NCBI GenBank assembly: GCA_051362555.1
Contig: CM120640.1
Coordinates: forward strand, 7,254,001-7,318,000
Reading direction: 5' to 3'
Length of the DNA stretch: 64,000 nt
Origin: Lingula anatina
Taxonomy: Eukaryota; Animalia; Brachiopoda
In this document: one piece after another, positions 26,900 through 53,965 of the stretch
Layout: every line of letters starts with the position of its first letter
Position numbering within the stretch: position 1 is the first letter of the stretch
Position numbers and translations under genes: made by a program
The notes under the pieces: generated by a model
Database searches by the model: none
Seen by the model: the letters and a program-made list of their open reading frames with translations, nothing else
Told to the model about the DNA's origin: nothing

Positions 26900-29800
26900 C
26901 TATCTTTTAGCCTTACGGGTAGCCCTCTTGTAAGGTGCAATGATCATGTTAAGAGGCAGGTTTGGACATATATGATCACATGTAACTCCTGGATATTCCG
27001 AAGTTATATCATTCATTCCAAAGTGCTGAATTAACGCAAACAGATTGGGAAATCTCTCTTCAATGTCTCCAAGTCTAAAGACTCCAAAACAGGGCTCAAG
27101 GTCATGAGAAGGACCCCTCAAACTGGTTCTCTGTTGTGGAAAGAGAACAAATGTCATTTACTAGTACTGTAAATATCGTCTAGAACTTATTGATTTTAAA
27201 AATTGTTAAAGTTATACCTATAAAGTCAAATCTATGCCAGTTAAACTGACTAAACTTTAAACAGCATAACTTAAAGAAATACCAAACAGTACCATCTCAT
27301 TCTTCTCATACAGTGTATGATAGTCATTTATAACAAACTATAGGGATGATTAAAAAGGTCAAGTTTACAACCAGAAATCTGAAGAATGTATAAAACTATT
27401 TGATTGGTGATTGAGTGTTAACTTTAGTTTTAAATAAGCCTTTGGTATGTCAACTTAATTTGAGTCCAATAGGAAACTAGTAGAAGTAGTTTTTGTGTTA
27501 CAGGGAATCTACCCTTGCTTCACGTGTAACTTTAACATTTTAAATGTTTTCTAGCTGCTTTTATGGTTCACTAGTTTACTTTAATACAGTATAACATAAA
27601 AATCTGTGAAAAATCTCACCAAATCATATAGAATTTACAAAAACTAAAATAAAATAAAATGATTTCTTTACCTCAATAATGAAGTGCTCTACACATCTTT
27701 GTGCAACAACAATGGACAGCACAAAACTAGCAGATTTTCGTTCTGTATCACTAAACCTATTGAAAAAAACAAACAAAACAAGGCTGCAAAGCTGTCAAAT
27801 GTACAGACAAAAAGCAGAAAATAATAATGCACAAAATAGAATACTGTCAATTCTGATGCAATAATACATTATGCTTAACTGCAAAGTGAACATCAAATTT
27901 TAATTATGCACAACAGGCCCATGAGAGAATTTAGTTAAAGGTCTCTAGTAATATGTCTTAATTCTGTAAATTGTCTTCAATATCTCTGACTTGCTTTCAG
28001 AATCACTGTAATGTTTTTGCCCTTGTGTACTAGTATATAAGGAGAAGTACTTGTCACAGGGGTGGATCCAGAGCTATTTTCTGACAGTCTTCCAAATTAC
28101 CTTTGTTAGGTACATCCTCCAATTTTGACTGTCTTCAAACAGAAAAAATTAGATACCTGTCTCTGTAAACTAAAAAATCTGACTGTCTTCTGGAAGACCC
28201 AGAAGATGGCCTAAATCCACCCCTGTGTAATATACTATCATTAGAGCCCTGTATCTTCACATAAGAAGTCAGAAGTTGTGTACAACAGAAAATATAGTTA
28301 GCAGATAGAAGTGGGCCAGTGACATCAATACCTAGATAGTACAAATAAAGGTGGAGATCACACAGATTGTAGTGAGTCTCAAGAAACATAAATACGGCTT
28401 GGTGTTACATGTTGGTTCCTGACTCAGTTGTCTTATTGGTGAAAAAAGGACAAGTTATTGCAATAACTCACCTCACTAGGTATGTTCCAACTTTTTCATT
28501 GATTAAATATTCCTCTGCTTTGGGTCTATCTAAATATCCAGCAAACCAGCTGCAATTCATCAAGTTAACATTGTTATAAACTAGAGGATCAGAGAGGCGA
28601 TATCGCCTCCAGATATTGTACCACCAGCTGGAGTAAGCGCATTCGTATGGACCCCCCCACCCCTCCAAAAAGGGACACCATCACCAGTCTTGTGCTTGAC
28701 AAGCTCTATAAGATGCAATCAATAAGAGTTCTCAAAATATGCAAAAAAATAAAACTAAAAATGGTATAATCAAGCAGATTTTCGAATTGACTTGCATTTT
28801 CCTACCCTTGATCACTCCTGTATTCTCTAGACAAAAGGCCTATTGGTTTTCCTTGAAAAGTGTTGTCAATGGTGCATATATGCTGACAAAAGAGAAAACC
28901 TAGGGGCAACAAGGGGCACATCTCTGCTAGTTTTAAAGATATGAGAGGCAAGAAAATATGCAAAGCTCAGTTCATGGTGAAAAAGTAGGTCAAAGGTCAA
29001 TTTCAATATCATAGCATATGAATTTCTATTCAAGTTCAATAGCAACCATGGGTATTTCTTTGCCAATTTTGCAGATTTAAAGGCCTGAAAACATGCAAAA
29101 AGCAGTTCATTATAAAAAGTAGGTCAAAGGTCAATTTCAAGGTCACAGATTGCTAGTGTATTACTTCCTATTCAAGTTCAATAGTAACTATGGACCTATC
29201 TCTGTCAGTTTTGGAGATAAAGGAGAAAGAAAATTTGCAAAGTTCAGTTCATAGTAAAAATATGGTCAAAGGTCAATTTTAAGGTCACAGTAAATTGCCA
29301 GTATATGACTTACTACTTAAGTTCAATAGTAACTATGGACCTATATCTGCCAGTTTTGATGATAAAACGGAAAGAAAATTTGCAAAGTTCAATTCATGAT
29401 GAAAAGTAGGTCAAAGGTCAATTTCAAGGTCACACTTAGATTGCCAGTATATGACTTCTTATTCAAGTTCAATAGTAACTATGGACCTATCTCTGCCAGT
29501 TTTGGAGATAAAAGGGAATGAAAATTTGCAAAGTTCAGTGCATGGTGAAAAGTGGGTCAAAGGTCAATTTAAAGGTCACAGTAAATTGCCTCTTATGACT
29601 TTCTATTCAAATTCAATAGTAACTATGGGCATATCTCTGCCAGTTTTGGAGAAAAAAGGGAACAAAAATTTGCAAAGTTCAGTTCATGGTAAAAAGTAGG
29701 TCAAAGGTCAAATTTAAGGTCACAGTAAATTGCCAGTATATGACTTCCTATTCAAGTTCAATAGTAACTATGAACCTATCTCTGCCAGTTTTGGAGATAA

Positions 29801-51400: not shown

Positions 51401-53965
51401 GGATCGATCCACAATTAGTACGACGGGGTCTGAGAATGGTTCCATAGACACTGCACTGAAATCAGAAGCAATACCACATTTTTTATTTTGCATGAAATAA
51501 AAAGTATCAAGCATAAATATGTATTTAACACTGCAATAAAAAATCTAGAAAAAGTAAATTCAGAATAGATTTTATATTTAATTTTCAATAATTGTCTGGG
51601 ATTCTTTCATGTGTTACACATTTATTATAGGCTACAGTGGCAGTTCCAACCTTTCTTCTCAAGAGGACCTCAAGCATGGAGATATATTCTCTTTTGGATT
51701 GGTTATTGGCTTCATGCACACTGGTGAAAAGCCATGGAATAAATGGAAAACACTGAGTATGGATGAGCCATCATTGCCAGAAAATGGAAAATATGATCCA
51801 TATAAAGAAAATATGCCCATGCAGAAACTTGGTGGCCCATTGAAAGATGTTTATGATGTTTGTAGAAGAGAAAAACCTGAGGAACGCCCTGGGGCAGAGA
51901 AATTGATGAAAGACTATTTCAGTAGTAAGTACAGTATATACTTTTGTCACAGGTACTAAATATTTTTTTAGGTTTGATTTTATGATTATAATTATTCAAG
52001 CTAAAAAGTCAAATATCATAATTCTGTCCCTTTTCTTTAATTTGTTTTAGTTAAGCATGATGTTGCCTTGGAAACGAGTGTTTGAACTACCTACATGTAC
52101 AATAGAAAAGTAAATTTCTGCTAGAGCAGTATACATGTTTATTCCTTGGACTATATTTGAGCATAAAATTTGTAATAAACTGGAATGATCATATATGTGT
52201 CTCTTACGTATATTATTGGTAACAAACTAACAAAATGATCATTTTTAGGTGACAAAAATCCCTACCAGTCAGAGGCCCTCAAGGCAGAGTTTTTTGTTTG
52301 TGGATTTCTCAAAGATACCAAGATATTTGTGGCAGACTCTTTGGTTGATGAGGTTTGCCTTTTTCTTATCAGCTTTAAAAAATATTCTTTATGTTGCAAT
52401 TGTAATCTGCTTTACACACATTAAGACCCTATATGTTCTTAAATTTACTGCACCATGTTGACTTTTCATGTCAACATTCCTTTAATTTTGCATGTTACTC
52501 AATCAAGTTTATTTGATAGCCAATCAACTGTGTGTCTACACTGCTCCTAAACTTTGACACAGTGTCTTCTTTTAGACTTCAGAGGGTTACTACCATAGGC
52601 GGTCAGAAAGACCTCAGGGTTACAAGATGGAGTTTCTACAGTGCAAGATAATTTTGAAACCAAATAAGCAGCCAAATTGTGATTTGCCACCTGATTGGGT
52701 TGAAGAGCAAAGGGAAACTTATAAAGCCAGCTATAAGAAGTTTAAAAAACAAGCAAAGGATAAAATTATTGATGACAATACTATCATTGCCCTTAAGAAG
52801 CTTGTAACAGACAGGGCAGGTGAGGAAGAAGATCAAAAAGTTGAAATGGAGTAAGTGTGCTATATTTGTTTGTAAAAAATGTATAATTTGTTGGGAGCTT
52901 TATATTAAAATAACATTGCACATAACTTTTGCCCCTATTATATGGTAAACTGAAAAGCAAACAGGAAAAAAAAGATCTGGTTTCACAATTCTCTAAATTA
53001 GTTTTTTTTTTTAAAGTAGGAAGCACATGTAATAAATAACTGATAAGAAATCATCAGTCCAGAGATATATTAAGATATAATAATAATAATTGCGCAAAAT
53101 ATCTTCTAGGTTTGCTGAGACTACTTATGTTCACCACCGAGCAATGCGTGAAATGTGGAGTGCCTTGACAGAGCATCAGCGCAGTGAGCTTGTTTCCTGT
53201 AAGGGGATTGTGGAACCCTACTACAGTACTTCATTTGGACTTCATGTAGCTGTGCTGACCAATGAGGGCCCAGGAAAACCTCAGAAATTTATTTTTCCAC
53301 AAAGGTCAAGAAGACCAGGTAGAGAATGAGCTTGAAATGTTCATTGCCTAGTACAATAATTTGAAATTGAGGTATAGATATTAAACAGACAATATTCTTA
53401 CCTTTTTCAAGTTTATAATAATCTCTTGATCATATAATAAATTTATTACTTCTGTCTTTTTTATGTTATTTAAGGCATGGCGAGCCCTGGAGCTTTTACT
53501 TGTGGAGCTGTTGAAAGTTGTTCAGTGAAGGATTACATTGACCCACATGCCGACCCTCTGTATCTGTCTTTAATCAGTACAGCAGCAAGAGGTCTGGAAG
53601 AAGAACTAAGAGTTGAGCTGAGGGGTGGAGACTTGGAAGCAATTTGTCTCAGTACCATTTATCTTAAATACGACACTCATGAATGGGGCATCTGCGGCTT
53701 TGTCGACTTGACAGACGAACGTATCTCAGAGGACCACAGACTTAGCTACAATCAACTCAAGTCAAGATTTACGGCAGGACCCAAGGATAAGTTTGAGCAT
53801 GAAACAGTCCATGCTGTGGATTTTGAGTTGGAACCAATGGTGGATTTTGTTCGCGAACATTACCAGACCTTTGCAAGCTCAGCCAAGCTTGTGGTTGTCA
53901 AAGTTATGCAGACCTTCTTTGGAGTACATGAAGTTGAACGTGCATTCCAAGCAAGAGACATGTAA
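42419..53965 (+). CDS. TKL-type protein kinase fused to a C-terminal divergent Nudix-like domain, 747 aa. Exons 42419-42605, 43631-43796, 44327-44525, 44739-44849, 49357-49491, 49799-49871, 51631-51924, 52249-52352, 52576-52850, 53110-53318, 53475-53965
   Basis: Frame-consistent GT-AG splicing (2244 nt). Kinase motifs [70 protein letters not shown]-terminal motifs [27 protein letters not shown] and [12 protein letters not shown] (Nudix-box-like). Confidence 0.85.
42661..42697. repeat. (CA)n microsatellite
   Basis: Direct reading. Confidence 0.9.
42855..43317. mobile_element. Tc1/mariner-pogo-type MITE
   Basis: TIRs GGGGAGAGTGGGGCTAGT / ACTAGCCCCGGTCTCCCC, TA TSD, internal ggggc/gcccc subrepeats. 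Confidence 0.75.
45167..45211 (-). mobile_element. Isolated remnant of the HINE terminus
   Basis: cttactcctgctggtggtacaataccaggaggctgatcctcta matches 1616-1670 with part of the hairpin deleted. Confidence 0.55.
45243..45410. mobile_element. CAGG-ended MITE with a 5-bp TSD
   Basis: caggcctgtagccag...ctggcaacaggcctg; TAAAT on both sides. Confidence 0.75.
45656..45823. mobile_element. CAGGG-ended MITE, family copy 2, 5-bp TSD
   Basis: caggggcggatccag...taaatccgcccctg; TAATG on both sides. Confidence 0.8.
46264..49188. mobile_element. 2.9-kb non-autonomous foldback DNA transposon (IS3EU-like)
   Basis: TATGGAAGCG...CGCTTCCATA termini, ~410-bp TIRs, 6-bp TSD AAAATG, and further internal direct and inverted repeats at 47020-48380. 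Confidence 0.8.
50313..50832. mobile_element. PIF/Harbinger non-autonomous element
   Basis: ~150-bp TIRs ggcttcgttcacatggaaagtc... / ...gactttccatgtgaacgaaacc with a TAA TSD. Confidence 0.88.
51222..51445. mobile_element. Diverged Harbinger-like MITE
   Basis: gggttcccatac...gatcgat...ctgagaatggttcc termini resemble the 42125 family; internal inverted arms. Confidence 0.4.

Follow-up and report, generated by a model that had tools for sequence, protein, structure and literature searches.

Two neighboring genes of the brachiopod Lingula anatina, one encoding a kinase joined to a Nudix-fold domain and the other a linker-SH2 protein, lie in a 64,000-nucleotide stretch of contig CM120640.1 (GCA_051362555.1, positions 7,254,001 to 7,318,000 of the forward strand; hereafter the window, whose own numbering is used below), and their closest described counterparts each share a part of this arrangement. 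MyD88–IRAK signaling combines a Death-domain adaptor with a tyrosine kinase-like (TKL) kinase, and RNase L and IRE1 pair a kinase with a C-terminal enzyme domain, a nuclease that they switch on. Dictyostelium SHKs contain no Nudix or Death domain and place the kinase before the SH2 domain, the reverse of the order in the fused amphioxus gene models described below. The Cbl tyrosine kinase-binding region (four-helix, EF-hand, and SH2) and the linker-SH2 of STAT proteins set a helical module directly before the SH2 domain, as in the Lingula protein, and human NUDT22 (a UDP-glucose/galactose hydrolase) and plant NUDT9-like proteins have in common with the Lingula Nudix domain a whole two-part fold and an unconventional box. 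Dictyostelium Shk1-5 are described as TKL kinases of predicted dual specificity paired with SH2, and Shk1 as dual-specific (PMC1420674). TRPM2 NUDT9-H and NrtR-type sensors carry a Nudix fold on a signaling protein, and loss of the first box Glu spares binding (PMC6461439; NrtR, PMC9503650), while engineered chimeras of a death effector domain (DED) and SH2 reroute tyrosine kinase signals to apoptosis (PMC2575513).

The Lingula locus departs from each of these systems. Unlike the single-chain SHKs, it comprises two genes on opposite strands, and unlike MyD88–IRAK, RNase L, and IRE1, it has no TIR, ankyrin, luminal, or KEN domain and no Death domain on the kinase. Its Nudix-fold domain differs from NUDT22 in sequence (14-16% identity, no sequence-profile match), in the kinase fusion, and in having RG, not RE, in the box; it is neither a stand-alone protein nor a sequence-detectable orthologue. 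From TRPM2 and NrtR it differs in belonging to another Nudix clade and in its kinase output, and its putative ligand is not known to be ADP-ribose. Unlike Cbl and STAT, the linker-SH2 protein has no detected RING, DNA-binding, or coiled-coil domain, and its amphioxus form bears an N-terminal Death domain, making it a natural Death-SH2 adaptor beside a candidate kinase where the DED-SH2 adaptors are engineered. We conclude that the two genes are likely an old, apparently undescribed phosphotyrosine signaling pair that is seemingly missing in vertebrates. Each domain type is known; the kinase–Nudix family and the linked pair are real and apparently undescribed. In the literature searched, which left most subscription journals outside its coverage, we found no kinase–NUDT22-like fusion, no natural Death-linker-SH2 adaptor, no linkage of the two, and no match to six LOC identifiers of the family.

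Gene models built from open frames resolve the region 26900-53965 into two intact genes on opposite strands, in the divergent orientation that an earlier note on this DNA had described:

42419-53965, plus strand: kinase–Nudix gene, ATG at 42419 and TAA at 53965, 11 exons (all GT-AG), 747 amino acids, no internal stop
42419-42605, 43631-43796, 44327-44525, 44739-44849, 49357-49491, 49799-49871, plus strand: its exons 1-6
51631-51924, 52249-52352, 52576-52850, 53110-53318, 53475-53965, plus strand: its exons 7-11
43631-51924, plus strand: TKL-like kinase domain (Pfam Pkinase, E 8.6e-39 on stored protein P0090; motifs)
52249-53965, plus strand: NUDT22-like Nudix-fold domain, ~358 amino acids, box CGAVES...ARGLEEEL
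34299 to 26900, minus strand: coding part of the linker-SH2 gene, ATG at 34299 to TAG at 26900, nine coding exons (all GT-AG), 331 amino acids
34299-34237, 34017-33846, 33596-33508, 32634-32520, 32239-32133, minus strand: its coding exons 1-5
31972-31917, 28549-28472, 27756-27672, 27130-26900, minus strand: its coding exons 6-9

The 56-nt SH2 exon at 31972-31917 was located by homology. The frame of the kinase gene matches the stored Lingula proteins P0001 and P0090, and its last exon is 100% identical to RefSeq LOC106170188 of L. anatina. P0090 (739 amino acids; same cluster as LOC106170188) spans the whole gene. Its alignment with the window model shows 17 differing positions, 12 of which cluster in one activation-loop stretch; because of these differences, the window is probably another haplotype or assembly than the stored records. 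In the current RefSeq model, P0001, most of the kinase is missing because the model does not begin until exon 6.

A short helical N terminus precedes the kinase domain, whose nearest solved relatives are TYK2, JAK-type kinases, CTR1, and RAF; its TKL-like assignment reflects these nearest matches alone and not a kinome tree. All motifs of an active kinase are present (Gly loop, β3 Lys, αC Glu, HRD, DFG, and APE), and of 56 aligned homologues, 55 retain the catalytic Asp, 54 retain the DFG Asp, and all 56 retain the αC Glu. At the position equivalent to PKA Thr201 (motif RWxxPE), none of the 56 has Ser or Thr, the residue being Asn in 24, His in 22, Gln in 8, and Asp in 2. Because the lack of Ser/Thr at this position predicts tyrosine or dual specificity in TKL kinases (PMC1420674), the kinase is predicted to be dual-specific or tyrosine-directed.

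The C-terminal domain matches nothing in Pfam, NCBIfam, or PADLOC, and a profile search of solved structures with it returned no NUDT22 at E ≤ 10. Its Nudix fold is established by structure prediction and comparison. The AlphaFold model has a predicted local distance difference test score (pLDDT) of 91, Foldseek aligned human NUDT22 over the whole domain (E 1.6e-10, template modeling (TM) scores 0.61/0.71, 14% identity), and VIA placed NUDT22 at Z 22.7, with a root-mean-square deviation of 3.5 over 275 aligned residues and the next family at Z 13.4. Its structural neighbors in the Atlas are NUDT22-like, plant NUDT9-like, and unnamed bacterial proteins; some of the bacterial proteins have HTH or TIR plus hexapeptide fusions. 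Those with an HTH_31 fusion (Chloroflexota) or a TIR_2 plus hexapeptide fusion (Bacteroidota) may belong to undescribed conflict systems of their own.

Across 13 homologues, identity to Lingula is 51-65% in this domain versus 38-48% in the kinase. The Nudix box is degenerate. Measured against the canonical Gx5Ex5[UA]xREx2EExGU (PMC5688067), it has RG for RE in 60 of 60 homologues and a loop insertion; of the two later Glu residues, one is present in all 60 and the other in 56. The "Nudix enzyme" of the earlier note therefore survives as a fold, and its status as an enzyme is doubtful, hydrolysis being putative. Without the first box Glu, TRPM2 and NUDT9 lose most of their catalysis but still bind (PMC6461439). 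As that Glu is replaced here and the domain is more conserved than the kinase, we infer that it serves as a sensor or slow hydrolase and not as a housekeeping enzyme.

The second protein has an acidic N terminus, a helical linker ending in GWFGP, and an SH2 domain that Pfam detects above its cut-off on one exon (E 2.7e-5). The phosphotyrosine-pocket Arg motif reads YLVRFS in Lingula and FLVRFS in amphioxus; we take its Arg to be that of βB5 and the αA2 Arg to be kept as well. The pocket residues are thus intact, and phosphotyrosine binding is predicted. Of the "EF-SH2 reader" proposed earlier, the SH2 half stands. Pfam gave no support for an EF, Cbl, or STAT module in the linker, and EF has in its favor one Atlas row, CBL-C, the best by query TM (0.56 over 183 residues, a modest model). 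A separate model of the linker-SH2 reached pLDDT 34, and the STATa SH2 domain matches the protein at E 0.002. Searches with the last SH2 exon were set aside, as 0 of 9 candidates passed and the 3 matches among 1.84 billion representatives were all repeat-driven. Alignment with amphioxus Death-linker-SH2 proteins gave 86-90 identities over 267-275 columns (32-34%), with scores of 337-356 against shuffle maxima of 51-73. Three of the four amphioxus exon boundaries in the shared region, as judged from segments skipped in gene models, fall exactly on Lingula junctions, and the fourth falls at a two-residue gap. These comparisons point to orthologous genes with shared intron positions.

The kinase–Nudix family itself is widespread. 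In the family search, 65 of 341 candidates passed, and named members come from a sponge (a second was added later), stony and soft corals, anemones, a chiton, abalone, bivalves, Lingula, a hemichordate, amphioxus, and tunicates, under database names such as "uncharacterized," "MAP3K7," "CTR1," "WNK-like," and "casein kinase-like." No named member comes from a vertebrate, arthropod, nematode, annelid, or echinoderm, a weak absence given that the search relies on words in common. In a quick 35-row tree, which broadly follows the species and is mostly single-copy, molluscs group together, as do tunicates, and Lingula is unresolved. In scans that need exact short motifs, a profile of the Nudix domain picked up relatives neither in prokaryote genomes (0 of 18 stretches; 0 of 31 with P0046) nor in viral contigs (0 of 17). 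Full-length mussel-clade kinase–Nudix proteins (P0037, P0046, P0131, and P0135) occur on metagenome contigs of up to 404,964 bases; two paralogues lie on a contig of that length, suggesting intronless, duplicated mussel copies, and Mytilus also has several paralogues. No SH2 match was found at 16 metagenome loci (1.1-4.9 kb each, of 228 stretches).

The two Lingula genes meet at their 5′ ends, where we aligned RNA reads from four (X1, X3, X4, and X7) of nine same-label runs to 32420-42620. The features of this region are as follows:

41922 to at least 41982, minus strand: non-coding exon 1 of the SH2 gene, from X7 reads and joints, with donor GT at 41921 and a second GT at 41917
41983-42418, no strand assigned: candidate shared promoter with ETS-like GGAAGT (42086) and TGACG (42092), from sequence and a motif scan
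42122 and near 42384, plus strand: candidate donor and acceptor in the kinase 5′ untranslated region (UTR), from sequence
42131-42342: repeat of ~210 bp resembling a miniature inverted-repeat transposable element, between SH2 exon 1 and the kinase ATG, with a second copy at 56561-56738
34913-41025, minus strand: Gypsy-type long terminal repeat (LTR) retrotransposon within SH2 intron 1, polymorphic
34913-35103 and 40835-41025: its LTRs, 100% identical
40592-39561 and 39597-35416, minus strand: its gag-like and pol open reading frames (ORFs)

Five X7 reads with four different starts join 41922 to SH2 exon 2 near 34383, across 7.5 kb (one of the four runs), and further X7 reads are cut at 41919 (four) and 41918 (two), beside the second GT 4 nt on. 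The donor at 41921, which the earlier note had put forward as a candidate about 500 bp from the kinase ATG, is therefore real and in use, 498 bp from that ATG. The SH2 transcript accordingly has its spliced exon 1 here and not at a start near 34.4-34.9 kb, the placement that would have told against the pairing, and the divergent starts are <1 kb apart (41922 to at least 41982 for SH2 exon 1 by RNA, 42419 for the kinase ATG). X7 reads also bridge the SH2 introns 32634/33508 and 34017/34237, and they skip a candidate exon at 33757-33693, which we dropped. The spliced SH2 5′ UTR candidate carries upstream ATGs. The candidate kinase 5′ UTR joint 42121-42385 was not seen among the joints listed (15 of 22).

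From ATG to ATG the genes are 8,120 bp apart, and 75% of this gap (6,113 bp) is the Gypsy-type element, which bears out the description of the gap as mostly one recent LTR insertion. The element has TG..CA LTRs, a primer site, gag, and the order protease, reverse transcriptase, RNase H, integrase; its flanking 4-mers, GGTA and TGTA, differ by one base. Because seven X7 reads (two starts) bridge the empty site, joining 34899 to 41027, the element is a recent polymorphic passenger, without which intron 1 is ~1.4 kb long. X7 is several percent divergent from the window sequence. High read depth at 41.5-41.7 and 42.1-42.35 kb is repeat-derived, and GAS-, ISRE-, and ETS-like motifs near the promoter, which had no chance control, were given no weight. 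At the places sampled, X7 covers both genes (12-16 reads on SH2 exons, 10-14 on kinase exon 1), and X1, X3, and X4 have 0-2 reads at either one; expression of the two genes is concordant, across only these four runs.

The pair is also linked in amphioxus, as read from identifiers and gene models, not from DNA. The Branchiostoma belcheri kinase match LOC109479090 has an SH2 homologue fused in front. SH2 and kinase genes carry consecutive identifiers in five of seven amphioxus pairs (CAH1272444/445, XP_066293534/535, Bbelb_306410/306420, LOC144878230/231, and LOC144918768/769), drawn from B. lanceolatum GenBank and RefSeq, B. belcheri GenBank, and two hybrid assemblies; the other two (B. floridae RefSeq and a second pair in one hybrid) have equal-size contigs only, without consecutive identifiers. 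Four amphioxus gene models fuse SH2 to kinase–Nudix, and since the SH2 part comes first, the order there is same-strand tandem. In fused model P0013 each half is nearest one paralogue set (90.7% and 96.8%), and in P0087 and P0089 the halves are nearest the other (94.6-97.0% and 95.0-96.2%), so that B. belcheri has two pair types, each SH2 half tracking its own kinase half. Two fused B. belcheri models each lie on a 49,212-base contig. In P0087 (1191 amino acids) and P0089 (1106 amino acids), both from B. belcheri, nearly the whole Death-linker-SH2 protein is in frame with nearly the whole kinase–Nudix protein, a putative read-through; P0013 and P0081 omit the kinase N-lobe.

The most parsimonious history is that the two genes were already neighbors in the bilaterian ancestor, that their relative orientation was altered along one lineage, and that amphioxus duplicated them as a unit. 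A bidirectional promoter is not the conserved feature, because the amphioxus pair is tandem. Homologues unlinked in other genomes, which the earlier note had named as grounds for giving up the pairing, were not what we found where this could be examined (amphioxus neighbors, fused models, and co-duplication). Of its head-to-head pair, the linkage is conserved, in two lineages, and the head-to-head layout is not.

The reading that we prefer, and hold tentatively, is a module in which ligand binding by the Nudix domain activates a tyrosine-capable kinase whose output is read by the linked SH2 adaptor. When occupied by a nucleotide-type ligand, the predicted Nudix-fold domain would switch on a kinase predicted to phosphorylate tyrosine; the resulting phosphotyrosine would recruit the neighboring SH2 adaptor, which in amphioxus could pass the signal through its Death domain to Death-domain partners in innate immunity or cell death. 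Gene linkage would be kept for co-expression. The co-expressed writer/reader cassette envisaged in the earlier note gains support in its writer and reader, from the kinase motif and the intact SH2 pocket residues, and functional coupling of the pair is likely.

Several observations weigh against this module. The catalytic loop reads HRDLKPDN, which we take to be of the Ser/Thr type; tyrosine kinase-type loops are HRDLAARN or HRDLRAAN. No part of the window matched a Death-domain profile (best E 1.5), so the Lingula SH2 gene has no Death domain. A search with the SH2 region of LOC109479090 brought up the SH2 partner in Branchiostoma alone (6 of 80 candidates), against a far wider kinase–Nudix family, and among 218 proteins from outside amphioxus, gathered as kinase relatives, none was fused or SH2-bearing, with two repeat-rich junk matches only. 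Four RNA runs, one of them positive, are too few for co-expression, and a species-like, mostly single-copy tree is unlike that of fast-evolving immune receptors. Like the approximately 600 conserved microsyntenic pairs that date from early bilaterians, the Lingula genes are unrelated neighbors, here 5′-5′ and <1 kb apart, but their orientation differs between Lingula (head-to-head) and amphioxus (tandem), and their linkage is known from two lineages where that call required four (PMC3514665).

The last points bear on the strongest competing account, possible if doubtful, that these are old neighbors without coupling at the protein level, whose linkage is an ancestral remnant in two genomes that rearrange slowly or is maintained by nothing more than shared regulatory DNA. 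The two-lineage linkage suits it, as does the much wider distribution of the kinase family than of the SH2 gene, and tandem duplication of any adjacent pair would give the same co-duplication pattern. However, the partners are complementary, a TKL kinase lacking the Ser/Thr marker beside an SH2 domain with an intact pocket; adjacency outlived a change of orientation, which a fixed shared promoter does not explain; and the uneven distribution may reflect a word-based search that is blind at 33% identity.

Unlikely, in our estimation, is a flow of signal opposite to that of the sensor-kinase module, in which an upstream receptor recruits the adaptor (by way of its Death domain in species that have one) and the kinase, clustered by the adaptor, activates the Nudix domain as an effector enzyme able to destroy nucleotides, nucleotide sugars, or RNA caps. 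The kinase is N-terminal to a strongly conserved enzyme-fold domain, the layout in which RNase L and IRE1 control their nucleases, and many polar residues outside the Nudix box are invariant (His135, Arg136, Arg139, Glu209, Asp215, His264, Glu265, Lys299, Asp300, Lys301, and His304, domain numbering). NUDT22 also lacks a conventional box (PMC5688067) and nonetheless hydrolyses UDP-glucose (PMC10101856), catalytic bases can sit outside the box (PMC6461439), and in virus-host conflicts NAD/ADP-ribose and caps are among the targets of Nudix domains (PMC9503650). For the first two of these reasons, a sensor role is not forced. Against an effector, all 60 homologues have Gly in place of the Mg-binding box Glu, whose loss lowers turnover to about 1% in nvTRPM2 (PMC6461439); in addition, an SH2 domain reading kinase output is simpler than one feeding kinase input, and Lingula has no Death domain.

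Very improbable is descent of the pair by the splitting of one SHK-like chain, or its continued production as a single chain in amphioxus through read-through splicing. In its favor, four amphioxus models are fused (P0087 and P0089 keeping nearly both proteins in frame), SHKs offer a TKL–SH2 precedent, and the linker-SH2 has its best Atlas feature match (score 0.91) in a cluster made up mainly of non-animal eukaryotes. Against it, more recent annotations of these species give two genes, the kinase N-lobe is missing from P0013 and P0081 as it would be from mis-joined models, head-to-head Lingula genes cannot yield one chain, and SHKs have the other domain order and no Nudix domain. The "split SHK" ancestry is unsupported.

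The remainder of the window holds other genes and repeats. Exons of an oxysterol-binding protein gene at 5376-11522 (plus strand; Pfam Oxysterol_BP, E 2.6e-34 to 1.1e-23 in three ORFs) converge on the SH2 gene. An element with a 146-bp tandem array is present in two inverted copies, 80-89% alike, at 1-1673 and 28579-30111, one of them within an SH2-gene intron, and inverted-repeat elements at 46264-49188, 47037-48353, and 50312-50833 occupy kinase introns 4 and 6. Fragmented ORFs at 23400-24500 (minus strand), with a weak HTH_7 match (E 0.016), resemble a Tc1/mariner-type transposase. A 207-codon Ser/Pro/Gly-rich open frame at 16056-16679 (minus strand), in a GC-richer patch and without a Pfam match, may be an exon of another gene.

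Within the sensor-kinase module, a role in defense is the weakest step: it draws on the amphioxus Death domain, co-duplication, and the bacterial structural neighbors, and the conserved, mostly single-copy tree disfavors it. A broader idea, speculative and improbable as a whole, is that of an early-animal phosphotyrosine circuit outside the tyrosine kinase group. In it, a nucleotide-sensing TKL kinase, present from sponges to tunicates and lost in vertebrates, would sense a nucleotide danger signal or second messenger and couple through a linked (Death)-linker-SH2 adaptor to immune or cell-death signaling, as a cassette that travels and duplicates like bacterial conflict operons, the Nudix domains of which would be its nearest structural neighbors. 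A 350-residue C-terminal domain that has no Pfam, NCBIfam, or PADLOC model is nevertheless more conserved than its kinase over ~600 million years. If the module is correct, it would offer a new entry to invertebrate nucleotide signaling in corals, bivalves, and amphioxus and would allow a test of whether TKL kinases drove animal phosphotyrosine circuits.

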